Positions 18,599 to 63,420 of a DNA stretch of 64,000 bases are shown piece after piece. The position numbers were made by a program, and so were the translations under genes. Every line of letters begins with the position of its first letter. Positions within the stretch are counted from its first letter, which is position 1. The stretch lies in NCBI GenBank assembly GCA_002269645.1, contig NIVC01000905.1:310001-374000 (forward strand), in the 5' to 3' direction. The notes below the pieces were generated by a model, which made no database searches, was not told the DNA's origin, and saw nothing but the letters and a program-made list of their open reading frames with translations. The DNA comes from Macrostomum lignano (lineage: Eukaryota).

Positions 18599-20506
18599 TC
18601 AATTCTCGCGCCAAGTGTAAAAGGCGGGACTTTCACCGGCTCTCCGGATTGCTTCACAAAAGTCTGCTCTGTCATCGTGTCGAGTCTTCCAGAGCGCCAA
18701 GACGACTCGAAACCAGCACTCCGCAGCGACCATGTGCCGTTCCCAATTAGTTTGCTGCCATGTCTGAGCCCTGGGACTCAGAATCAGAGCCTCAGTTCTG
18801 CCGCGAACAATGGCAGCGGCCAGCTGCAGCAGCAGCGAGTGGTCTTCGCCACTGCAGCGGCCTTCGGAAATTTCTGTGGCAAGAGTCTGCAAAATGTTTT
18901 TGTATTCGCCATCAAATGCGTCACCTGTGCAAATTTTTTCAAGCGCATCTTTTCTTGTCTTGATAAATTTTTTGTCGTTCCAGTCTTTAAAGATAAGTCT
19001 AACAGCTTCGTCCTGATAGCGGTGATACTGTTTGTTAAGCCTCTTCAAAACGATTCGTCTTCCACAGAGGCTCTTATGTTGATGCCGAGTCTGCCTCAGC
19101 TGCAGATAGGTCAATCCGCTCTTTGCTTCTGGCTCAAGATCATCACGTGTCTCCATTGGAAGGTCTTCGCCCCAGATATCGTGCGTTCTTTGCGGATCAT
19201 CGTCCTCACTGTAGATTTGGCCAAGTCTGCGTAACTTAGGAACAAGAATTGTTAAGCCTTTCGTGCTCATACGACTACCTGAAATCTCGCGCAACCTGCG
19301 AATGACTTCATTGACTACTGGTTCGATTGAGCACCTGGGTTGAAGCGAAACAAAATTTCTTTTTTTTAGATTACATATTTCAATTATAAATACGGAGAAC
19401 GGCTCCAGTGGAACTTGGAGGCGTGAAATTGTACATGTTTTTGGCCAAGGCGCCTCTTGTTGCTTTTTGAAATGAAGCAGCACTTCAAATCGAAAGTCTT
19501 TCAGATCAAACGTCTTGAAAAGCTTTGATCCCTCAACTTCCACAACTGCCGCAGCCACCCATAGCGGCTTTTTGCGTTCGTTTTCGATCTCAAATTTAAG
19601 AGGCTTTTCCCATAAGCCGAACTCACCGCAGTTTCCCCGAAACTCGAAGAATTCGACATCCCGAAGCTCGCATTCAAAATGCAGCTCAATGTGAGTGACT
19701 GCGTACACTCTGGGCTGAGCTTGAGGGTCCAGTTTGATTAGATACGTTTGCGTTGGATTTGCATAATCGACAGGCAGATTGATGTCGCAAAACTCTGTGA
19801 AAGGTACCATAGGCTCTTGAGCTTGAGCTTTCACAACTCTAACTCTCAGAGGCTCTTTGGTAGGCAGTCTCATGAAGTTGTTATAATTGGCCATTTGCAG
19901 ATCATCGATCGTCAGCGTCCAGACCTGTGCGTCTCCGTGATCTTGCTTTGCAGCATCGCATTGCATGCACTTTGTGCAAACTTTACGAGACTTCTCAAAT
20001 CGCTTATGGCTATTATGTTCAATTTCAAGCTGAAAATTAGTGTTAAAATTTTCCAACTCCGTTTGAAATTCGAAGATAAGGCAGATCGGTGCCATCGGAA
20101 TGACTCGGAAATTGCTATTTGTCAGGTCACAGTAAATAACAAACTCCACCTGTTTGTCCTTGACAAAGTGAGGCACAAACCGGGTCCCTTCGCCAAACTC
20201 TATCTTATAGTCGAGTACTTCCTGTTCCATGGTAGCACTCAGTCGGAATTGCAGAATGTTTTTGGTTTCGGCTGTCTTGATTTTGCCGTGTTCCGTCACT
20301 TTTATATTTTCCAATCTTCTATCGCCGTCAGTATCCAGTTTTGAGTACCATATTTGCTCACCTGTTTCAAGTGTCTTTTGTTTCAGTTCGTGCGGCTTAG
20401 TCTCCGTGGAATCGTAAATGTTGAGATGAATTCTCGATGCTCGCTCACCGCCCTTTACGACAATGTGCAAAACTGCATTCGGTTTTTGTTGTGGCTGCTC
20501 TTGCAT
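18599..20506 (-). CDS. Uncharacterised 635-aa protein (single coding exon); beta-rich N-terminus, helical C-terminal domain shared with the 21347-22117 protein
   Basis: 1.9-kb open frame of non-repetitive sequence. In-frame TAA two codons upstream of the ATG, and a splice-acceptor-like CTCTCAG just upstream. Paralogous similarity to the neighbouring ORF. Confidence 0.8.
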   Translation of the reverse strand: MQEQPQQKPNAVLHIVVKGGERASRIHLNIYDSTETKPHELKQKTLETGEQIWYSKLDTDGDRRLENIKVTEHGKIKTAETKNILQFRLSATMEQEVLDYKIEFGEGTRFVPHFVKDKQVEFVIYCDLTNSNFRVIPMAPICLIFEFQTELENFNTNFQLEIEHNSHKRFEKSRKVCTKCMQCDAAKQDHGDAQVWTLTIDDLQMANYNNFMRLPTKEPLRVRVVKAQAQEPMVPFTEFCDINLPVDYANPTQTYLIKLDPQAQPRVYAVTHIELHFECELRDVEFFEFRGNCGEFGLWEKPLKFEIENERKKPLWVAAAVVEVEGSKLFKTFDLKDFRFEVLLHFKKQQEAPWPKTCTISRLQVPLEPFSVFIIEICNLKKRNFVSLQPRCSIEPVVNEVIRRLREISGSRMSTKGLTILVPKLRRLGQIYSEDDDPQRTHDIWGEDLPMETRDDLEPEAKSGLTYLQLRQTRHQHKSLCGRRIVLKRLNKQYHRYQDEAVRLIFKDWNDKKFIKTRKDALEKICTGDAFDGEYKNILQTLATEISEGRCSGEDHSLLLQLAAAIVRGRTEALILSPRAQTWQQTNWERHMVAAECWFRVVLALWKTRHDDRADFCEAIRRAGESPAFYTWREN

Positions 20507-21346
20507 TTGTTATTTTTCTGCTGCTGCTGGAACTGAGAGTTAGGAACAGTCACGTTAATTCAAAATTAAACCACAGCTAGCTGAATTAATTGATGCGATT
20601 TAATTTGGGTTCAAATTCTCAGGAAACTAAAAGCTATTGTTCTGCTAAAATATCAATTTTTGTTGTTCTAATAAATGTTTTTGCTTCTATAGCTAGCAAT
20701 AAAAGTAAATCATATAAAATGCATTTTATAAGTTTTTGAAATACATCACAATGCATTGATTTTGGTGTGCGATCACTATCATAAATTGAGAAAAGAATTT
20801 AGCAAGAGAGGCACAGCAAAGTGGCGCTTAAGTACCGAGTTTTTTATTCGAAAAAGTTTTTGTTAATAAAAAGCCAAAAATATATGGATTTGACAGCTTT
20901 AGCGACCGAAATACTCATTAAAAATATGTAGAAAAAGTGGTCATGGTAATAAAAAATTGTACTTAACTTAAAAAAATTATGTAAACAAGTAGCTTCAAAC
21001 TTTAATGACTATACAAGGTTCAAGAAAAATAAAGAACAATAATTTTATTCGTCAAAATATTTTAGGCCCTTGCCACAACCTGAAAAACAGAATCATCTAT
21101 CATAATTTGTAGAAAAAAATAAACTGGAATGAACGGAAATAACAAAATTTTGAACGGGTGGCGCAAAGTACTGCGGTATACGTGTACTCGTATCTACGAG
21201 TATATATCACGTAAATGTTTTATAAGTTCTACATGTTATTCGTATGAATTAATATTATAAAATATCTGGGAGACAAAAACTTGGTCCTCACACATTCAAA
21301 TACGATCGAGTTCAGATTCCAGAGCGTGCCGAACAAGCCAAAAGGC

Positions 21347-22117
21347 TCAACTCACAGTCCTGTTGCCCATACATGCTTTGAACTTCTCAGCCTCGTCCTC
21401 AGGCTCGGTCACGACAGTCCTGAGGCGGCTCCACACGGTCACCATGAAGCAGAACCAGGCCTCCGCCACTGGGCAGCGGTCCCGAGGCTGATCGGTACTC
21501 AGTTTCAGGGCTTGCAGGTGACTGCGAACGATTTCAGCTGAGTTCTGAAGCAAGCTTTTCGCTTCCTCATCTTCAAACGCCCACTCGCCGTCTGCAATGC
21601 TGATTGCCAGCTCAGTTACACACAGCTTTTCATCTTCACGGAATTCTTCTTCCGTGAAAACTTCACGCAGATTGGCAGGCAGCATCTGCCTAACTGACTG
21701 TTTCTTCTCTTCCAAATCAGTGGTCTTCCTCTCTGCCTCATCTGGCATCAAGTACCGAGCGTAAATGCCTCTGACGCTGTGGTAACTGGTCAGTCTAACT
21801 GGCAGGTTGGGAATGCAGCATAGAGAGTACGTTAAGTCTGTGAGCACCGTGTTCTTGTCGAATAGGGGGTTGGCTGCAACTTTTTCAACCATATTCGTAG
21901 CTGCATTCTTGAAGCCGTAAATACTGCCAGTAGGTTTCGCAAGTTTCCTAAATTTCGTAGAAACCATGATCTCAGGAATTGGACATTCATCCAAGTGTGA
22001 CTTCAGATGTGCAGTAGTTGCTGATGATTTTGAAGGCGACTCTGGTGACTTTGACGGTCGTGTCACAATGGGTTGGAAATGAAGGCTTGGTCCTTGTTCG
22101 TCCATCAAGCTTTTCAT
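21347..22117 (-). CDS. Uncharacterised 256-aa protein, paralog of the C-terminal part of the 635-aa protein
   Basis: Open frame with acceptor CTGCAG 4 nt before the ATG. Aligned blocks YARYLMPDEAER/YHRYQDEAVR, LLQNSAEIVR..QALKLS/LLLQLAAAIVR..EALILS, VAEAWFCFMVTVW/VAAECWFRVVLALW. Confidence 0.75.
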   Translation of the reverse strand: MKSLMDEQGPSLHFQPIVTRPSKSPESPSKSSATTAHLKSHLDECPIPEIMVSTKFRKLAKPTGSIYGFKNAATNMVEKVAANPLFDKNTVLTDLTYSLCCIPNLPVRLTSYHSVRGIYARYLMPDEAERKTTDLEEKKQSVRQMLPANLREVFTEEEFREDEKLCVTELAISIADGEWAFEDEEAKSLLQNSAEIVRSHLQALKLSTDQPRDRCPVAEAWFCFMVTVWSRLRTVVTEPEDEAEKFKACMGNRTVS

Positions 22118-22288
22118 CGCTCTGCAGTAGAATTTGTTTGTGATTATCAGATTCGAAGCTTACAAGATCGAAAAGCAGAATTTTTCCAAGTGGGAAATGT
22201 ACGAGGAGGTTTCAATAAGTTTCTGGATGCACAAAGTCTAGACGTAGAAAGATGATGTACTCAATTTGGAATTAGCTGGGCTGGTTAA

Positions 22289-32650: not shown

Positions 32651-36938
<4,288 letters not shown>

Positions 36939-37749
36939 GCTTGAAGTTTCCTGAGGGAATAATTGACAACTAATCTGGTGACACTACAGAAGATTTGAGA
37001 GCCAACAAGATGTGCTACAGGTAAAAATCGATGGCACTTTACAGTGCAGTGATAGGGAAAGCAAAGATGGAAATAACGAACGCTCTGCTCTGAAGGCCAG
37101 TTTGGGAGGAAGTCTTGTAAATTTTAGCTCTGCATGGGAGCTATACGACAAGGAATTGAATGGGTGAGGCCGAGAAAGGGAGGGGAAGAGTTTGTTTGTT
37201 CCGCATTGGGAGGCTGGAATGCGTTTCTCTATCCCTCTCCCTCCCCAAATTGGAGCATGCGACTATTGGAGCGGGGTTTTTTTGAGCAGCCATTGAATGC
37301 CACGTGGAGGATGCAGGTGGAGGTGCAGGTGGGGCAAGTACAACGTACAGCATCGGCCCGCGCATTCACAGACCCCCTCCGCAGTAGCCCAGCTCTGCAC
37401 ATGGGAAAAACACAGGCTCATTACAGCCAGAGCTAGCTAGCTTCTACATAAAATTGGCAATGTCTTGTAGCAAGAAGGCTGCATAAACGTGTATCTTTAG
37501 CAGTATCTTACCAGTATGCGTCGCATTTTTATGTCAATCTTTTACCCAGTCATCAAAAGGGAATTTGAATGTCTCGTTAAAATTGTCCGATCATTCGTGT
37601 ACATGTACACATGTATATGCATGTATGCATTCCGACGATCGTGCTTTATGAATATCAGCCTTTATAGATTTGGAATCGAATTTTACCTCAGTTCGGTGTA
37701 CATACATGTATGCACATGTACACATGTGTATCAACAGCAACAAAAACAA

Positions 37750-39437: not shown

Positions 39438-42400
39438 TTGAGGCCCCTGGTTGTTTGCCTTGCAAACGAAAGTGACAAAGCAGCTTTCTTCGGCAACCTA
39501 AAAAACCTGCGGGAAACTGGTTCTGCCTATCAAAGAGTCAGAATAGAGAACGACCTAACAGAGAAGGAACGTACGTACAAGCAGAAGGTCATCAAAGAGC
39601 TGAAAAAACGGAAAGAAGATGGTGAGAAAAACATTCGAATTGCATATAAGAAGGGAGTCCCCTTCATCAAAGCTTTTTGAACTTCATTGACTTCCGACCT
39701 TTTTGATACTAGATGTATTAATAAATCTACTGATGCTAATAGGACTAAAAAGAAGCGGATTCAGTACACTAGAGATTATCTTATCTTGATTAATAATAGT
39801 ATCACTCATAGGAACATAAAAATATCTCAAAATGCTAAATCAAAACTCTCTGAACTCAATATTAAAAAGATTAAACAAAATTTCACAATTAGCAGTTGGA
39901 ATATTACAGGACTTTATACTATAAAAGACTCAGTGATGATTCCCAAGCTTGAATTGTTAGAAGCTGAACCAATTTTTAAGCATGATATTTTCTGCCTTCA
40001 AGAAACTTGGATAATTGACACAAAAAGCAATGATAGGCTTCTCAGCACTGACAAATTGCGTGACAACTACACAATTTTCCAAAAGTCTGCAAACAAAAAA
40101 GGAAGCAGTTCTACTGGTAGGGCATCTGGCGGCCTACTGACTGCTTATAAAAAATCACTAGAAACACACTTCAATGTGACTGAGTCATTCAATAATTACA
40201 ACAATTTTTTGACATTAAACTTTAAAAACAAAAAGGACAAAAGCAAAAATTTCACTGTTATCAACTCTTACATACCACCAACATCTTCAAAATACTATGA
40301 AGAAGAGTCTTGGGAACAGTTAGCACTAATACTTGATGCACATCATTCTGAAGAAAACATAATCCTGGTGGGAGATTTTAATGCACATACTTACAATACT
40401 GATCATATAGATTTGCATAGAATAAGCACTTTAAAGGCAAAAAATATCTCACTCTATAGGCAAAGCCAAGACAAAAAAACCTGTAAAAGTGGTAGATTAT
40501 TAAACCAAATCACAAACTCATATAACTTGCATATAATCAATGGTAGATCCCTATCTGATGCAACTGGAACACTTACCTTTATCTCCAAAACTGGTTCATC
40601 TGTAATTGACCTCTGTTTTGTCTCTAGCAACTTACTTGAGCACTTTGAAGACTTTAAAGTAAGAAACCATACTTACCTTAGTGACCACAATCAAATTATA
40701 CTCTCATTATCATGTAAATTCACAGCAGAGATTACAGAAACAAAACAAGCAACCAATAACCAAAGAACAAAATTCCGGATATTAAGAAAACTAGATAAAC
40801 CCACCCCACAACAAGAAAAACATATCAATTGCTTCTCAGATGATCTAAAGGATCTGGAGAATAAAATCCCAAATCTCGACATGCAAAACCCAGCTTTCAT
40901 CCATAATTTAAGCAAGAAAGTTCAGCAAATCCAAAGTAAAATCACAGTAGAAACAAAAAACCCTCTCTGTTCAGCATTGCCACAATTTCTTAAAGACCTG
41001 AGAAATGCCACCAGGCATGCCAGCAGAAGATATAAGATGTTCCCCACAAGTAGCAACCTCGCATCCAAAATACAGCTTAAAAAAACATATGAAAAAAGCT
41101 TGATTTCTTGGAAACATGAATCAATACTGTGTGCAGAAAACATGATCAACCAGGCTTATATTCAAAATGATACAAGACAGCTTTGGCAATTACTGAAACC
41201 ACATAACCGCCCCAATAACAATGCAGCAATTGACAAAAAATTTGTCATACACTTTCAAAATCTTGTAACTGAACAAGACAGCAGCATTAGACTAGCATAC
41301 AATCTTCACCTTGACAACCCTATTCTGACTAATTTAGAGGATTTCAATGCCCCATTCACCAAAGAAGAAGTTATAAAACATATTAAAAAGCTCAAAACCG
41401 ACAAAGCACCTGGGCATGATAAAGTATATGTAGAAACACTCAAATACCTTGAAAACGAACTTACTGACCTCCTATGCTCACTTTTCAACGAAGCACTCAA
41501 ACAAGGAACCTTTCCAACTAGTTGGATTACAAATACTCTTCATCCGATTTATAAAAACAAAGGCAGCAGTGCCGACCCCAACAATTACAGAGGAATCTGC
41601 ATTCAACCAATTTTTGGCAAGCTCTTTTGCCAAATTATTAAATCCAGACTTGAAAACCTAGCATACGCTAACAATCTTATATCAAAATACCAATACGGTT
41701 TCAAGCCCAATCACAGCACAATCGACCAATGTTTTAATCTTTACAACATTATAAACCAGTCCATCTACAACAAAAATGAACTCTTTATCGGTTTTGTTGA
41801 CTATGAAAAAGCCTTCGATAGCTTAAATCAACCGACCCTTTGGCACAAAACGGATAACCAAGGTATTAAAGGTCAAATGACAGAACTTATCAAGAACATG
41901 CATAAAAATGCCTGTTTCATTCTAAAGAAAGATGATGATGATGATGAAACCCAGCCAATCCCAATATCTAAAGGTGTTCTTCAAGGTAACCCTCTCTCTA
42001 CCATCCTTTTTGAACTATATATTGACGACATTGTTGAATATCTTGAACTCTCTAGCGCTAGGCGCTCTCTTACGAGATCTGCTTTCCCACTCATCCTGCT
42101 CTTTGCGGACGATCAAGCCATTCTAGCTAAAAACAAAGATGAACTTCAAGACACATTTACAACTATGGAAAATTACTGCAAGCAAAACTACTTGAAAGTT
42201 AATGCAAGCAAAACAAAGTTTATGCAGGGCAGTACCAGACAAAAAAATGACACCGAAAGTTTTGCTACAAAAATAATCTACGACAACCAAGAAATAGAGG
42301 AAGTAAATGAATTTAAATACCTGGGAATTATTTTTGAACCAAAAAACAGCTTTAAAAAATGTATTGAACATCAAACTAAGCAGGGTTATTCAGCTATGTT

Positions 42401-43270
42401 TTCCCTACTCCACAAGGTAAAAAATACGTCCCTGGACATCACACTCATCCGCAGACTATTCGACGCGCTTGTCACCCCCGTTATCACGTACGGCTGTGAG
42501 CTCTGGGGCCCTCTGGCTACCATTTCTGAAACAAAAGCTATTGATAACATTCAGCTGAAATTCTACAAATATCTCCTCAATCTACCAAAATTTGCTAGCA
42601 ACAGTGTGATATCATCAGAACTTGAGCTTACTCCAATCTCCCAACGAATTGCTAAAACCTATCTTACCTACTGGCTGAAGATTAGACATCAAAAACTTTG
42701 CCAAACGACACTAGAAATTTTCTACTCAAACACCAGCCAAAAAAATCCATGGAAAACAAATATACTAAAGAAACTGGAAAGTATAGACTTAAAAGCACTA
42801 ACTGAAGATAAACTTTCCCAAAGCTTTAATAACGAGAAATACCTAGTGAAAAAGCACCTCAAGATACACAGAGAAAGAGAACTTAGCCAAAAGCTAGAGA
42901 ATCAGCAACATATTAAACTCTATAAAAACGCCTATCTCTACAAAAAAATCTGCAGGCCTGACCTTTCAGATTACTTTCCATGCACTTTTAGAAACAAAAA
43001 ATTCCTAACAACCCTCCTAAAACTGAAATGCGAAATTACACCCAACATTTTCTCTCATGAACCATGTAGACTGTGTGGAGCGAGAAATGGTTCCGATATC
43101 CTACACTACTTGACCGAATGTCCACAAACCGAAAAGTTCAGAAAAAATACTTCTGTCAGTACCTCCTAAATGACAAGCAAGTACACAAGTTAGGATATGC
43201 TACAAATGAAAAAAGAGTCAGAAAAGAGCTCACTGGTGTAGCTAAAATATATGAAGTCATGAATAGCTAA
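39438..43270 (+). mobile_element. 5'-truncated LINE: ORF1 C-terminal remnant (39438-39680) + ORF2
   Basis: RPLVVCL...VRIENDLTEKER is a typical LINE ORF1 C-terminus. ORF2 follows in the same frame, and its C-terminus probably continues to 43270 after a one-A slip at ~43145. Confidence 0.85.
39687..43169 (+). CDS. Non-LTR retrotransposon ORF2 (APE endonuclease + reverse transcriptase + C-terminal zinc knuckle), RTEX/L2-like
   Basis: EN motifs SWNITGL, LQETW, YIPP, GDFNAH, SVIDL, SDH. RT motifs KAPGHD, NYRGICI, QYGF, DYEKAFD, QGNPLS, FADD, KYLG. C-terminal CRLC...HYLTEC. Confidence 0.95.
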   Translation: MTSDLFDTRCINKSTDANRTKKKRIQYTRDYLILINNSITHRNIKISQNAKSKLSELNIKKIKQNFTISSWNITGLYTIKDSVMIPKLELLEAEPIFKHDIFCLQETWIIDTKSNDRLLSTDKLRDNYTIFQKSANKKGSSSTGRASGGLLTAYKKSLETHFNVTESFNNYNNFLTLNFKNKKDKSKNFTVINSYIPPTSSKYYEEESWEQLALILDAHHSEENIILVGDFNAHTYNTDHIDLHRISTLKAKNISLYRQSQDKKTCKSGRLLNQITNSYNLHIINGRSLSDATGTLTFISKTGSSVIDLCFVSSNLLEHFEDFKVRNHTYLSDHNQIILSLSCKFTAEITETKQATNNQRTKFRILRKLDKPTPQQEKHINCFSDDLKDLENKIPNLDMQNPAFIHNLSKKVQQIQSKITVETKNPLCSALPQFLKDLRNATRHASRRYKMFPTSSNLASKIQLKKTYEKSLISWKHESILCAENMINQAYIQNDTRQLWQLLKPHNRPNNNAAIDKKFVIHFQNLVTEQDSSIRLAYNLHLDNPILTNLEDFNAPFTKEEVIKHIKKLKTDKAPGHDKVYVETLKYLENELTDLLCSLFNEALKQGTFPTSWITNTLHPIYKNKGSSADPNNYRGICIQPIFGKLFCQIIKSRLENLAYANNLISKYQYGFKPNHSTIDQCFNLYNIINQSIYNKNELFIGFVDYEKAFDSLNQPTLWHKTDNQGIKGQMTELIKNMHKNACFILKKDDDDDETQPIPISKGVLQGNPLSTILFELYIDDIVEYLELSSARRSLTRSAFPLILLFADDQAILAKNKDELQDTFTTMENYCKQNYLKVNASKTKFMQGSTRQKNDTESFATKIIYDNQEIEEVNEFKYLGIIFEPKNSFKKCIEHQTKQGYSAMFSLLHKVKNTSLDITLIRRLFDALVTPVITYGCELWGPLATISETKAIDNIQLKFYKYLLNLPKFASNSVISSELELTPISQRIAKTYLTYWLKIRHQKLCQTTLEIFYSNTSQKNPWKTNILKKLESIDLKALTEDKLSQSFNNEKYLVKKHLKIHRERELSQKLENQQHIKLYKNAYLYKKICRPDLSDYFPCTFRNKKFLTTLLKLKCEITPNIFSHEPCRLCGARNGSDILHYLTECPQTEKFRKNTSVSTS

Positions 43271-46847: not shown

Positions 46848-47601
46848 TTGACAACTTTATTTTCTGTGTCATAAGTAAGAAAATACAACATATATTTATA
46901 CTCAGCAACATTGTAAAGCTGCCACTCTATGCGCCAGTGAGCAGTTTCTCTTGGACTATTCTGAAATAAAAGTTACAAGAAAACTGATTGGTGTAGCTTT
47001 AATCCATTCAACCCTTGCAAACCGCTCCCCCCACTTCATTCCTAAACTCAAGTCCGCCATGGCGTAGCTGAGTTATGTCACTCAGAAAGATGAGAGGCTT
47101 TACCTGCACTTTCAAAAGTGGCGACCACAGAAAGAACCTTCTGTGATGGCGACTTTTTGATGTTGCTGAGTACAAGCATATATATACCTTACACATATAT
47201 GCAATACATGTACTTAAGATCATGCAATTACTGATGTACTGTATATTGCATAGGGCATAATGTATATGCACAATAATAATATTCTTTGTCCTTAAGTTGT
47301 AAATCATTGCAAAAACACATTTTGCTGCCATAGGCTAAGATCCTTGCCTAGATCAATGAAATAGCTCAGATAAAAGAAGTTAATAAGGCATGCCAATGAA
47401 ATGCTCCAATAGGTACTCGTAAATGTTTATTATGGTATGTGCAATTTCTCTTTGAATACTTTCTCATTGTTATTTGATAGTACTTGTAGTAGACTTGTTT
47501 GCATTTTTTCAACTTTTTTAATTATATTATTTTTACAGATAAATTTGACAACAGTTTTGTATTTAAATTAAACTTGAACAGAAACTAAAAAAGCATTAGC
47601 A

Positions 47602-52213
<4,612 letters not shown>

Positions 52214-53650: not shown

Positions 53651-54404
53651 CAGTTGCACAAAAGCAGCAACTCAGAAAAATAAACAAGGTTAAAGCAGAA
53701 CCTGCCATTGTTATTTAACCTGGGATTGCTACATTAACTTTTCTGATTAATATTCATTTAGAATGCTACACACACGTATATATTCAGTTATGCTGTCATT
53801 CAAACGAACTTAGTGTCCAATGGATTATTCAGCAGCAGAAGACACAAATTATGAATTAATTAGTTTATCAATGATGTTTTTCTTCATATTCCAGTTTTTG
53901 TCCTCAGTAACTAGTGATTTGCCAGCAGAGAATCTTTAGTGATAATTATTTATTACAATTATTGCAATAAGCAGGTTTTTGATGATTGCCATATTCTGAT
54001 TCAGAATGCAGACTTTTTCATTACGGTTCAAACCCCAACGCTATTACTGTTGTTGCGATGATATGAGTAGTATACTCTAGAGAGTTGCTGTCAAAATATT
54101 TATTTGTTGTGATTAGCATTCCTTTTGTTGTGGTTCAGTTTATTTTTAATAAAGTCAATATATAAATCGTTCATTATTATAGGTAGTATAGTGAAATCTG
54201 CACACGAATAATGCTATTGTTAGTAGTTAATTTAATAATTATTATTGCTTTAGATGAACACTTTCGATTCCAATGAACAACCTGCTATAATTAATCTGAT
54301 AAAATTATAATAAAAATCTGATATCTCGAAGCGACAGTTAAAAATCTTTCATTTAGTAAATTTCTTTTAGGATCCTGTTTTTCAAGATTATTTCATCCCC
54401 ATTT

Positions 54405-55135
54405 GGCAGGTCGCCCCTGCATCTGCTATGAGATTCGTCCCTGCATCTGCTATGAGATTCGTCCCTGTATCTACTATGAGATTCGCCCCTTGTACCGTAT
54501 GAGATTTCCCCCTGTATCGACTATGAGATTTGCCCCTGTACCCTCTGAGATTCGTCCCTGTAGCCACTATGAGATTCGTCCCTGTAGCCACTATGAGATT
54601 TGTCTCTGTATCTGCTATGAGATTCGTCTCTGTATCCACTATGAGATTCGTCTCTGTATCTGCTATGAGATTCGTCTCTGTATCCACTATGAGTTTTGTC
54701 CCTGTATCCACTGAGATTCGCCCCTGAATCTGCTATGAGATTCGCCTCTGTATCTGCTGAGATTCGTCCCTATATCCAGTATGACATGCGTCTATGTTTC
54801 TTAAATGAGATTTGTCACTATCTGCTAGGAGATTCGCCCTGTATCTACTATGAGATTCGCCCCTGTACCCTATGAGATTCGCCCCTGTACCCTATGAGAT
54901 TCGCCCCTGTACCCTATGAGATTCGCCCCTGTACCCTATGAGATTTCCCCCTGTATCGACTATGGGATTCGCCCCTGTACCCTCTGAGATTCGCCCCTGT
55001 ATCCTATGAGATTCGCCCCTGTATCCTATGAGATTCGCCCCTGTATCCTATGAGATTCGCCCCTGTATCCTATGAGATTCGCCCCTACATCTACTGAGAT
55101 TCATTCTTTACACCAGCTAAGGCCTACGAGATGCT
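54405..55135. repeat. ~22-bp minisatellite (TGAGATTCGCCCCTGTACCCTA)n
   Basis: Direct inspection. Confidence 0.93.
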
Positions 55136-55174
55136 ATGAGCTCAGTAAATTTCGCAGCTTCCAGCGGCCCCATC

Positions 55175-56601
55175 ATGCCGGACTGGTCGGGAATCACCCT
55201 GAAGTCGACACTGAAAGACGCCTACGCCGATTGCATCTTGCGGCTGTTCCAGCCATTCAAAAGCAAATCCTGGGACGTCGCCTTCGATGCCGGCACTTTT
55301 AAATCGTCGCTGGTGAACAGCTGCGAATTGCGCGACTCGCCCGAGGTGGAACCGTCGGGGTGGACGCCGCTGCACTATGCGGCCAGTGCCGGTGCCCCGG
55401 CCTGGGTGGCCGAGCGGCTGGTTGAAGCCGGTGCGGCTCGGTGCGCCAAGGACTGGCTGGGCAGGACTCCGCTGGATTTGGCTAAAAGTGTGCCAGGATG
55501 CGGACAGGTGAGAGGCCAAAGTGCAGGGGTAATTCTTTGGTTATTCGCATATTTTTAGATAACTCTCCCATTAGCATATGTGATCCTTAGTTTTGGGATA
55601 TTTCTCCCATTAGCTTATGGGATCCTCAGTTTTGGGATATTTCTCCCATTAGCTTATGGAATCCTCAGTTTTGGGATATTTCTCCCATTAGCATATGGGA
55701 TCCTTAGGTTTGGGATATTTCTCCCATTAGCATATGTGATCCTCAGTTTTGGGATATTTCTCCCATTAGCATATGGGATCCTTTGGTTTGGGATATTTCT
55801 CCCATTAGCTTATGGGATCCTCAGTTTTGGGATATTTCTCCCATTAGCTTATGGGATCCTTAGGTTTGGGATATTTCTCCCATTAGCATATGGGATCCTT
55901 AGGTTTGGGATATTTCTCCCATTAGCATATGTGATCCTTAGGTTTGGGATATTTCTCCCATTAGCTTATGGGATCCTCAGTTTTGGGATATTTCTCCCAT
56001 TAGCATATGGGATCCTTAGGTTTGGGATATTTCTCCCATTAGCATATGTGATCCTTAGGTTTGGGATATTTCTCCCATTAGCTTTTAGGATCCCCAGTTT
56101 TGGGATATTTTTTTCATTAGCTTATAGAAAACTCAGTTTATGGGATAATTCTCCCATCTGTATTGTCCCTCAATATTCGCCTACTTATATTTCCCATAAT
56201 TCCCTCGAATTACCTTCCTTCAGGACCTCCTGGCAGCCCTGACGCCAAGTTTTCACCTGCCAGCTGAACAGCTCGACAACTCTCAGCTAGACGCCATGGA
56301 GAGCCATTTCCACGGCCTAATCAAAGAAGCATCTATGGGTCTGTCCGATAAAGGTCACCTCAGTATGCTCCCAGTTCGAGTCCTGCTCGAATCTCACCTG
56401 ACATCCGGCTTAAACGATTGCTGGAATTTTCCTATACCGGGCATGTACGGCGGGTTCTATAATATTCACCTGGTGCTGGGCGGCGATGGCCGGGTGTCGC
56501 ATCTGCAGTGCGAGAGCTGGTGTCGCGTCTCCGGAGGCTCCGGTCGGAGGGACAAGGTCACCGCCGACGGGGTGGAACTGCTTGAGTCCGGGTTTGTGTG
56601 A
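55175..56601 (+). CDS. Ankyrin-repeat protein of bacterial-type architecture, 2 exons (55175-55507, 56224-56601), 236 aa
   Basis: Phase-0 intron (CAG|GTGAGA...TTCCTTCAG|GAC) joins the two ORF pieces. Ankyrin WTPLHYAASAGAPAWVAERLVEAGA..KDWLGRTPLDLA. C-terminal FPIPGMYGGF...ESWCRVSGGSGRRDKVTADGVELLESGFV*. Confidence 0.85.
55560..56125. repeat. 39-bp minisatellite filling the ankyrin gene intron
   Basis: Unit GGGATCCTCAGTTTTGGGATATTTCTCCCATTAGCTTAT. Confidence 0.95.
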
Positions 56602-56709
56602 CCAAGTTTGAAAATTTATGTCTGTTAAACCTCTGACTGAAATATGGAATGCCTTTAGGCAATGTTTTACTAAAATAATTTGTACCTTTCGGGGAATTAT
56701 ATACCTATA

Positions 56710-58312
56710 AGCCAGTAGGATTATTGGGGGAATTTTGTATCCTCATTAGCCAGTAGGATTATTGGGGGAATTTTGTATCCTCATTAGCCAGTAGGATTAT
56801 TGGGGGAATTGTATCCTCATTAGCCAGTAGGATTATTGGGGGAATTGTATCCTCATTAGCCAGTAGGATTATTGGGGGAATTGTATCCTCATTAGCCAGT
56901 AGGATTATTGGGGGGATTGTATCCCTATTAGCCAGTAGGATTATTGGGGGAATTATATCCTCATGAGCCAGTAGGATTATTGTGGGAATTATATCCTCAT
57001 GAGCCAGTAGGATTATTGGGGGAATTATATCCACATGAGCCAGTAGGATTATTGTGGGAATTATATCCTCATGAGCCAGTAGGATTATTGTGGGAATTAT
57101 ATCCTCATGAGACAGTAGGATTATTGGGGGAATTTTATCCTCATGAGCCAGTAGGATTATTGGGGGAATTGTATCCTCATTAGCCAGTAGGATTATTGGG
57201 GGGATTGTATCCCTATTAGCCAGTAGGATTATTGGGGGAATTATATCCTCATGAGCCAGTAGGATTATTGTGGGAATTATATCCTCATGAGCCAGTAGGA
57301 TTATTGGGGGAATTATATCCACATGAGCCAGTAGGATTATTGTGGGAATTATATCCTCATGAGCCAGTAGGATTATTGTGGGAATTATATCCTCATGAGC
57401 CAGTAGGATTATTGGGGGAATTTTATCCTCATGAGCCAGTAGGATTATTGGGGGAATTGTATCCACATGAGCCAGTAGGATTATTGTGGGAATTATATCC
57501 TCATGAGCCAGTAGGATTATTGTGGGAATTATATCCTCATGAGCCAGTAGGATTATTGGGGGGGATTGTATCCTCATGAGCCAGTAGGATTATTGGGGGG
57601 ATTGTATCCCTATTAGCCAGTAGGATTATTGGGGGAATTATATCCTCATGAGCCAGTAGGATTATTGTGGGAATTATATCCTCATGAGCCAGTAGGATTA
57701 TTGGGGGAAGTATATCCTCATGAGCCAGTAGGATTATTGGGGGAAGTATATCCTCATGAGCCAGTAGGATTATTGGGGTAATTATATCCTCATGAGCCAG
57801 TAGGATTATTGTGGGAATTATATCCTCATGAGCCAGTAGGATTATTGGGGGAATTGTATCCTCATGATCCAGTAGGATTATTGGGGAATTTTATCCTCAT
57901 GAGCCAGTAGGATTATTGTGGGAATTATATCCTCATGAGCCAGTAGGATTATTGTGGGAATTATATCCTCATGAGCCAGTAGGATTATTGGGGGGGATTG
58001 TATCCTCATGAGCCAGTAGGATTATTGGAGGAATTATATCCTCATGAGCCAGTAGGATTATTGGGGGAATTATATCCTCATGAGCCAGTAGGATTATTGT
58101 GGGAATTATATCCTCATGATCCAGTAGGATTATTGGGGAATTTTATCCTCATGAGCCAGTAGGATTATTGGGGGAATTTTATCCTCATGATCCAGTAGGA
58201 TTATTGGGGAATTTTATCCTCATGATCCAGTAGGATTATTGGGGAATTATATCCTCATGAGCCAGTAGGATTATTGGGGAATTTTATCCTCATGAGCCAG
58301 TAGGATTATTGA
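56710..58312. repeat. 36-bp minisatellite (GAGCCAGTAGGATTATTGGGGGAATTATATCCTCAT)n
   Basis: Direct inspection. Confidence 0.97.
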
Positions 58313-58802
58313 AGCAATCCTTAATTATCAATTTAAGTCCTAATAGATTTTAATTTAGTATATTTAGATTGTTCTATACAGGTGTGTCCGAATGCAGATT
58401 ACGGAGTTCTGTCTGCATGTATTTTATTCCGTTAATGCTCACGTTTTTATATTAATAGAATATTTATTTTTGTTATCTACTCAAGATGTATTTTCAGTAT
58501 ACGAGCGTATTGATAAGTATACACATTTTTAGATAACTTTCCTAAATCCAGTCTGTGATTACACCGAAATTCCCCTGTGCATCTTGTGATTCTTTCTGCT
58601 TTTATTGACACATTTTTTATTCTTAATGTGCTATCCTATAAACATATCAATATCTTATTGAAATAGACTTGACAAAAATTTTAAAAAGCTTTAGACAACT
58701 TGCATAATCTTTGTTGTATTGTCAGGCAAAAATAATTTTCTGAATCTCTCGCTTCTTGTACTTCATGCCTTGAAAATGTCTGGCGTTTCAAATGCAGTCT
58801 GG

Positions 58803-62755
<3,953 letters not shown>

Positions 62756-63080
62756 ATAGATTAAATACGAGCTCGTAGATACACAGCTAGATAGATCTAT
62801 AGATAGGTAGTTTTTTTACAGTAAATTCTTATTGACTGAAGCAATAGCAGAAACCCTTTGAATTCTGTCTGTCTGTCTGTCTGTCTGAAACATCGTTTTA
62901 TGGCAGAAATAATAAACGTGTGGACTCTGTCAACAGCCAGACCGGCAGGTAGCAAATGTAATTCAAAGGGGAATGCATCGCATTAATTCAGAAGAGTCAT
63001 TTTGCATAATAGCGTGTGACGGAGCAGCTGTACCAGTCTATAAAGCTGCTAGAGCGGACAAGTCCTACAGTGTTGTCTTG

Positions 63081-63420
63081 ATGGAATTGCACACCATGAA
63101 AGAGGGCAACAGGCCGTCTATTTCGAATTTAGTCAGAGAATTAGTCTCCGAGAGCACAGCTCACGGAATCAGCCGAGTGACTTCAAGCTGGCGCGATGTG
63201 ATACTCAGAGTCCTTTGGCTGGCTTGTTTCGTCGGCTTCCTCATCCTGATGATCAACACGTCGAGGACCTTCGTTCATCGGCTGAGACACCCTGGCGTTA
63301 AATCTGAACTTAGAGCGACGACGTGAATGTGGCTTTCGAGTTTCGGATTTGTACTTTTGCAACACAATGCTAGCTGCTGGCTCGTCAATTTATCTGCTAA
63401 ATGAGACCGAGTTAGATCAG
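63081..63420 (+). CDS. 5' part of a DEG/ENaC (ASIC-like) sodium channel subunit: HG motif + TM1, interrupted at 63324
   Basis: ELVSESTAHGISRV...RVLWLACFVGFLILMI is the conserved pre-TM1 HG motif and TM1. The +1 frame continues FRVSDLYFCN (cf. FPAVTICN) to a possible donor CAG|GTGACG at 63421. Confidence 0.7.

Follow-up and report, generated by a model that had tools for sequence, protein, structure and literature searches.

How a flatworm genome comes to hold a gene laid out like a small bacterial ankyrin protein, whether that gene is a working part of the genome and what its C-terminal domain might do are the questions raised by a locus of Macrostomum lignano. It was analysed here in a window of 64,000 nucleotides (contig NIVC01000905.1, positions 310,001 to 374,000, forward strand; all coordinates below are those of the window). 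A first-pass annotation made from the sequence had proposed an old, domesticated horizontal transfer from bacteria. Domesticated bacterial genes, such as the cellulases of nematodes and the transfers into bdelloid rotifers, are a known kind of gene in invertebrates, and the basic event would be no surprise. No literature containing the motif PGMYGGF or the gene identifier Mlig019744 was found, and a search for Macrostomum together with horizontal gene transfer and ankyrin returned nothing about this gene in titles or the opening lines of abstracts. The main text of a compendium of metazoan transfers (PMC13342648) names neither Macrostomum nor flatworms nor ankyrin; its data tables may bear on prior notice.

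Results

Gene model and genomic copies

The features of the locus are collected in Table 1. Both exons and the GT-AG intron were confirmed in the sequence, and the exons join in phase 0 into a product of 236 aa carrying the motifs that the first-pass annotation had quoted; the satellite that it saw filling the intron is likewise present. Public records labelled Macrostomum lignano are 99-100% identical to the product, including PAA75091.1, a 241-aa model (P0153 in the alignments).

Table 1. Coordinates of the gene, its transcript features and its neighbours within the window.
Feature	Position	Strand	Remarks
V-type ATPase subunit A, several exons, upstream neighbour	47578-52213	+	PF02874, PF00006, PF22919
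Upstream transcribed stretch	53670-54337	+	X2 contig 53950-54337, X13 contig 53670-54166; X1 also stops at 54337
Tandem satellite, 23-24-nt unit, filling most of the interval behind the upstream transcript	54411-55102	.	
Spliced-leader trans-splice acceptor AG	55156-55157	+	mature mRNA starts at 55158
Upstream 15-codon frame, opened by the leader AUG	55158-55202	+	closes at TGA 55200-55202; overlaps the main start, out of frame
Coding exon 1	55175-55507	+	111 aa; ATG at 55175
Exon 1 content: most of the ankyrin-repeat domain, preceded by the W-S-G-I-T N-terminus	55175-55507	+	PF00023, E 7e-6
Spliceosomal intron, GT-AG, phase 0, 716 nt	55508-56223	+	contig joints in RNA-type runs
Tandem satellite within the intron, 39-nt unit, 15.2 copies	55564-56157	.	
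Coding exon 2	56224-56601	+	125 aa and stop
Exon 2 content: end of the third ankyrin repeat and undescribed C-terminal domain with PGMYGGF and SWxRVxGGSG motifs	56224-56601	+	
Likely 3' UTR	56602-56692	+	X1 and X7 contigs stop at 56692 and 56691; other contigs longer, end approximate
DEG/ENaC channel gene, first part, downstream neighbour	62916-63323	+	PF00858, E 3e-4, below the curated cut-off

Near-identical copies of the gene lie on contigs C551 and C2882 of the same genome (G000), where the intron measures 326 nt as against 716 nt in the window. Between the three genomic copies (contigs C905, C551 and C2882) there are three amino-acid substitutions and one silent change, too few to be read for constraint, of which they give no sign. 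Contig C2641 holds a fourth copy of the same locus, in which exon 2 contains three single-base gaps that are likely sequencing mistakes; this exon 2 copy (L004, L170) is the origin of the frameshifted public protein model P0004. Searches of G000 with the worm protein and then with a distant homologue found no divergent paralogue.

Cis-splicing and spliced leader

Eight of the 24 sequencing runs listed for the species were examined as assembled contigs. The RNA type of the runs so named is a guess made without a recorded label and is borne out by the exon joint and the leader. The 716-nt intron was removed in all six RNA-type runs, which come from five studies, so that the junction check suggested by the first-pass annotation came out positive. 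In the genomic-type runs X15 and X16 (unlabelled) both exon-intron borders read unspliced and the joint was seen in neither. Loose 5' ends at 55157 were present in three of the six RNA-type runs (X1, X7 and X2), and their additional 5' letters agree with the 3' end of the published M. lignano leader at 21 of 21 positions in X7 and X2 and at 15 of 16 in X1. This leader is given as 35 nt long and ending in ATG in PMC8629364. The X13 contig begins exactly at 55157; contigs of X3 and X9 reach further upstream. The mRNA carries the Macrostomum spliced leader, a finding new to this analysis, the acceptor having been overlooked in the first-pass annotation. Since the frame opened by the leader AUG is out of register with the gene start 17 nt further 3' and overlaps it, translation of the gene would depend on leaky scanning. 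The gene is real, expressed and integrated in the host genome.

Neighbouring genes and candidate operon

A Pfam scan of 112 of the 197 listed frames of the window and a few short ones returned the two flanking animal genes named at the outset, V-ATPase A and DEG/ENaC, and the order V-ATPase A, gene, DEG/ENaC is the same on C905, C551 and C2882. GC3 of the two exons is 0.75 and 0.66, and that of the V-ATPase A frames 0.76, 0.66 and 0.48.

The end of the upstream RNA at 54337 is preceded by AATAAA at 54309. This transcribed stretch is likely, by inference, the 3' UTR of V-ATPase A, because no AATAAA-type signal occurs between the V-ATPase A stop and 53679; no contig spans the 28-nt repeat back to the stop. 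From 54337 to the acceptor there are 820 nt, and subtraction of the 692 nt of satellite leaves 128 nt. For Macrostomum, PMC8629364 defines operons by a repeat-adjusted gap of less than 1 kb and reports a mode near 100 bp. With its 128 nt and its trans-splicing the gene falls within this definition, provided that 54337 is the 3' end of V-ATPase A; transcripts were available as short assembled contigs, none of which crosses the satellites. Because the repeat-adjusted gap fits both the published cut-off and the mode, the gene probably shares an operon with V-ATPase A, the latter being the first gene, a proposal that is also new here. Downstream, satellite (36-nt and GATA arrays) makes up about 5.6 of the 6.3 kb before the DEG/ENaC frame (56602-62915), and DEG/ENaC could therefore be a third gene of the operon.

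Protein architecture and fold

An AlphaFold2 model built from a 41-row alignment reached a mean pLDDT of 92. Residues 24-126 of the model form about three ankyrin repeats, where one or two had been read from the sequence before, and superpose on tankyrase repeats with Z 12.7 and rmsd 2.1 over 92 aligned residues; the assignment combines a PF00023 match above its cut-off with a stacked helix-turn-helix fold. The C-terminal domain was modelled as two helices, one long and one short, and a sheet of five strands. The C-terminal model has a mean pLDDT of 79, and its best structural match had Z 4.0 and rmsd 3.8 over 66 aligned residues. Comparison of the C-terminal fold with 48,161 chains (VIA-align) gave none at a Z of at least 5, a missing match being no proof of a new fold; Foldseek with the C-terminal model gave no match at E 0.001 or better, and a PDB sequence search with the C-terminal profile gave two chance matches only.

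The earlier statement that the C-terminal domain belongs to no named family agrees with the profile searches, in which no Pfam or NCBIfam family was shared among 52 members. The TY-Chap2 and TY-Chap3 Pfam profiles had no match in these 52 members at E up to 1, and comparison of the family with ARPP was likewise without a match. Across five family-carrying genomes PF22552 (TY-Chap) matched once, on another contig, and PF22553 (TY-Chap) had zero matches, with controls also at zero. PADLOC reported PDC-M72A in six of 41 full-length members, probably by way of the ankyrin part, and had no match for the worm protein.

Across the family the C-terminal domain may make up a whole protein of about 105 aa, follow the ankyrin part or be fused to other domains. 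The worm protein keeps PGMYGGF as well as S209, W210, R212, G216 and S217, and departs from the family at R147, P160 and H221 (R147A, P160L and H221D), residues that are held by 88-94% of 343 other members.

Distribution of the family

At E 0.001 or better, HMMER with exon 2 returned 236 representatives; two of the exon-2 matches, the repeat proteins P0006 and P0063, were put down to chance. A word-index search of longer proteins with exon 2 had retained none of 568 candidates before the full HMMER scan gave these 236, and an ESM Atlas search with exon 2 alone gave no usable match. In GTDB, 293 of 319 pattern matches are relatives, in accordance with the colinearity with bacterial ankyrin and PGMYGGF proteins that the first-pass annotation had proposed. 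The worm protein is colinear with bacterial members from end to end at 30-40% identity, and the Atlas structural match to bacterial members has a TM of 0.78-0.81 over 217-221 residues. The family had been thought mostly actinobacterial; its best 80 GTDB relatives come from Actinomycetota, Planctomycetota, Pseudomonadota, Cyanobacteriota, Acidobacteriota, Chloroflexota and other phyla. The worm protein has the architecture and core motifs of the bacterial ankyrin proteins of about 220 aa that end in PGMYGGF...SWxRVxGGSGQRH (Kitasatospora WP_380325578.1, Streptomyces, Nocardia, Frankia, cyanobacteria, planctomycetes), but its gene differs from theirs in the intron, the spliced leader, the likely operon of eukaryotic type, a five-residue loop insertion and the three substitutions given above. 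Among named full-length matches from outside the species, the best are to bacteria. Eukaryotes account for 63% of one ESM Atlas cluster, and the other full-length clusters are 97-100% bacterial. None of 22 pattern matches in viral contigs was confirmed as a member.

The C-terminal domain, which the first-pass annotation did not know from animal proteins, is present in other animals. Members were found in the bivalves Mya arenaria (MAR_015550), Dreissena polymorpha (LOC127881808) and Saccostrea cucullata (LOC134269491) and in the krill Meganyctiphanes norvegica, among the 120 of 383 matches listed, most of them unnamed, and two of the bivalve or krill members sit on sequences of 70 and 128 Mb. 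Outside animals the family is present in Serendipita (fungus), Balamuthia (amoeba), Chlamydomonas incerta (green alga), a dinoflagellate and an MMETSP protist. Eukaryotic names were taken from 30 hand-picked proteins and record presences rather than a survey. The distribution among eukaryotes is patchy, not broad. Bacterial relatives of the C-terminal domain and spliced transcripts, whose absence would have counted against the first-pass annotation, were both found. The gene is better integrated than that annotation saw, through its leader and likely operon, and less unique, given the relatives in bivalves, krill, protists and a fungus.

Phylogenetic position

In a FastTree analysis of 344 full-length rows the worm protein fell into a 38-row, animal-like group together with clade B (14 rows), a bivalve-krill clade (20 rows) and three unnamed rows, with local supports of 90, 59 and 91. 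Clade B, possibly another animal group, comprises P0021, P0025, P0037, P0291-P0295, P0299, P0306, P0308, P0310, P0318 and P0337 (ENA, Logan, JGI) and has a diverged ankyrin part. IQ-TREE was run on two hand-subsampled sets, of 57 rows (LG+G4) and of 40 rows (C20). The bivalve-krill clade and clade B each received 100/100, both without the flatworm, whose copy had no supported sister and no supported bacterial nesting in either tree; its branch is long (1.05 in the LG+G4 tree and 1.75 in the C20 tree). The C20 tree placed the named animals on one side with support of 50/61. The amoeba copy pairs with one unnamed row inside the bacterial part (98/90 under LG+G4, 89/75 under C20), and eukaryotic rows are scattered among bacteria in several places.

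AU tests did not reject a grouping of the worm with both animal-like clades (p 0.48), with the bivalve-krill clade (p 0.38), with clade B (p 0.17) or with Actinomycetota (p 0.25 and 0.47). For the named eukaryotes as one clade p was 0.022 under LG+G4 with the unnamed rows forced out and 0.056 under C20 with the unnamed rows free.

The W-to-H spacing is 34 in the worm, 33-34 in 16 of the 20 bivalve-krill rows and 32-37 in all 13 scored rows of clade B; it is 29 in 71 of 80 GTDB rows, and spacings of at least 33 occur in four of these 80 and in 11 of 219 other rows. The five-residue loop insertion, which precedes the TPLH motif, is common to the worm and the bivalve-krill clade. Among the alignment columns the worm agrees with bacteria alone in 14, which may be ancestral states, and with the bivalve-krill clade alone in six. 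The bivalve and krill members resemble the worm protein in their two domains and W-to-H spacing and differ from it in forming a clade of their own and in their M-E-Y-P start, that of the worm being of the bacterial W-x-G-x-T type. Mean identity of the worm protein is 35% to the bivalve-krill clade, with a range of 31-39% to its bivalve and krill members, and 37% to bacteria.

Two krill copies are nested within the bivalve copies (P0311, P0349, P0329, P0368 and P0389; 100/100 clade). The nesting may reflect hidden paralogy or animal-to-animal transfer.

Bacterial gene neighbourhoods

The genes around bacterial members were examined in 160 loci (80 from GTDB, 80 from metagenomes; 1.06 Mb). ADP-ribosylglycohydrolase (ARG) is encoded in nine of the 160, amounting to six independent occurrences, two of them fusions, where about 0.4 would be expected; the base rate is taken from 38 matches in 107.5 Mb of 16 hand-picked host genomes and is rough for metagenome loci. 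L155 (768-3693) and L120 (483-3525) each hold a compact operon in which the gene of a divergent NrtR regulator is followed by that of an ARG-phosphatase fusion and then by the family gene. ARG is fused to the family protein in L086 and L124 and a phosphatase in L148, and ARPP and vWA each adjoin one further locus. Thirty-six long or unusual members, chosen by hand, were scanned with Pfam for fusions and yielded three with ARG, three with Macro (one cluster), three with a phosphatase of PTP-SAK type and one with a nucleotidyltransferase.

In 148 of the 160 loci no ARG, phosphatase, Macro or ARPP match was present. Across the 80 GTDB loci no neighbour was conserved, and no neighbour family extended beyond a few related genera. 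Other nearest neighbours are of defence type: BrxL, GmrSD, NucS-like, Uma2 and GIY-YIG nucleases (L020, L079, L051, L019, L045 and L039).

ARG-centred systems are proposed in section 3.8 of PMC9503650 to reverse viral ADP-ribosylation, and the layout described there consists of a Nudix or WYL regulator, ARG, a rhodanese-phosphatase, a chaperone and ARPP. That section names chaperones and ARPP as accessories and not the PGMYGGF family, and the word "ankyrin" is absent from the available text of the article. Some bacterial members match this layout or are fused to its enzymes, the full layout being present in a minority of them only (L155 and L120). Neither the majority of members nor the worm gene is found at loci of this kind. 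No ARG or phosphatase gene is linked to the worm gene: G000 contains 12 ARG matches, none of them on C905, C551 or C2882.

Discussion

Origin of the gene

The worm gene is likely of transfer origin, whatever the date. In favour of this stand the many bacterial members, the scatter of the named eukaryotic ones over distant groups and the position of the amoeba copy within the bacterial part of the tree. Our working explanation is that an old horizontal transfer would have brought the gene into the flatworm lineage, likely independently of the acquisition by bivalves and krill. For a separate origin speak the exclusion of the worm copy from a clade that unites molluscs with a crustacean, although flatworms are closer to molluscs than krill is, its bacterial type of start and the 14 columns shared with bacteria alone against six with that clade alone. 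That the flatworm had a transfer of its own is nonetheless a tentative conclusion, to which we would give a little less than an even chance. What stands of the original proposal is that the gene is no contaminant, being host-integrated and spliced; no tree nests the worm copy in a bacterial clade with support. The narrower idea of a flatworm-specific transfer from Actinomycetota meets the presence of the domain in other eukaryotes, and the AU values given above neither show nor reject it. Bacterial contamination or mis-assembly, to which the bacterial identity of the best named matches might point, is refuted: the exon joint and the leader appear in RNA-type runs and the unspliced form in genomic-type runs, the gene has animal neighbours on three contigs, and its GC3 is like that of V-ATPase A.

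A very old acquisition in a protostome (or wider animal) ancestor, common to flatworm, bivalves, krill and perhaps clade B, lost in most lineages and followed by fast evolution of the worm copy, is a distinct possibility that we nevertheless regard as rather doubtful. It would account for the insertion before TPLH, for the FastTree group that holds all animal-like rows and for the C20 tree with the named animals on one side, and the AU tests of the corresponding groupings (p 0.48 and 0.38) are compatible with it. Against this, the C20 support is just 50/61 and the worm stays outside the fully supported bivalve-krill clade, long W-to-H spacings are also found in some GTDB and other rows, and the worm protein is no more identical to the bivalve-krill clade than to bacteria. 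Descent from an ancient eukaryotic gene, with many losses and no transfer into animals, appears decidedly improbable. Members in Amoebozoa, fungi, green algae, dinoflagellates and animals, the mostly eukaryotic Atlas cluster and the p of 0.056 for eukaryote monophyly under C20 can be cited for it; monophyly has a p of 0.022 under LG+G4, however, the eukaryotic rows fall among bacteria in several places and the remaining full-length Atlas clusters are almost wholly bacterial. Because the named eukaryotic members are few and scattered, vertical descent also needs very many losses. The presence of the module in a flatworm, bivalves, krill and several protists suggests either that it was captured repeatedly or that it is an old animal gene of very patchy distribution.

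If the flatworm copy was transferred, it would have landed behind V-ATPase A and acquired a trans-splice acceptor there. Its message would then be cut from the long V-ATPase A transcript, so that a promoter of its own would be unneeded, and the intron would have been gained after the transfer. With its leader added 128 repeat-free bases behind a housekeeping transcript, the gene gives a concrete example of how foreign DNA could be expressed without a promoter. Like the worm gene, the nematode cellulases and the bdelloid transfers are bacterial-type genes that gained an intron, lie among animal genes and have their RNA processed in the manner of the host. They differ in that the worm gene lacks a known enzyme activity and a supported donor and that its family is also present in several other animal and protist lineages.

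Predicted function

From gene context and conserved residues, the bacterial family may act as an accessory in ADP-ribose clean-up, a prediction that we rate somewhat short of even. The ankyrin repeats would hold a partner protein, the glycine-rich loops, in which Ser and Arg are invariant, would serve as the binding site of an ADP-ribose or phospho-ribose group, and the family protein would present modified proteins to the hydrolase and the phosphatase. That the predicted role is retained in the worm we consider unlikely; its gene has no such neighbour, and the well-conserved R147, P160 and H221 are changed in its protein. The C-terminal domain might instead bind peptides generally, as a chaperone or adaptor, or be an enzyme that has nothing to do with ADP-ribose, the ARG link concerning a side branch of the family only, and to this we would grant nearly an even chance. 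The lack of ARG-system genes at 148 of the 160 loci and of a neighbour family common to more than a few related genera speaks for it, as does the slot for interchangeable chaperones in the ARG systems of PMC9503650. What speaks against it are the independent fusions with four kinds of NAD- or ADP-ribose-related domain, the invariant Gly, Ser and Arg loops, which fit a small ligand, and the missing TY-Chap match.

Taken as a whole, the explanation that combines an expressed, trans-spliced gene, an old and separate transfer and an accessory part in ADP-ribose clean-up is the best at hand, held tentatively and just below the even mark. A more far-reaching version is improbable in our view: an undescribed ADP-ribose-binding module of bacterial defence, with its fold unsolved, would have been captured repeatedly by aquatic eukaryotes, namely a flatworm, bivalves and krill, an amoeba, a fungus and algae, as a defence or repair factor, and the worm copy switched on through a trans-spliced housekeeping operon. 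Hundreds of proteins belong to the family, for which there is neither a profile model nor a clear solved fold, and the link to ARG systems provides a first testable function. The undescribed domain together with this link is the part worth following, and Macrostomum is a model animal in which knock-down is routine.

Other features of the window

Three further features were observed upstream of V-ATPase A. An intact-looking LINE element (39681-43166, plus strand) encodes endonuclease and reverse transcriptase domains in an open frame of 1162 aa. At 35193-36983 on the minus strand lie exons of a gene of cupin or JmjC-like type (weak Cupin_8 match), whose product has a hydrophobic stretch near its N-terminus, and two long frames of 636 and 270 aa, without a Pfam match, occupy 18602-22159 on the minus strand.
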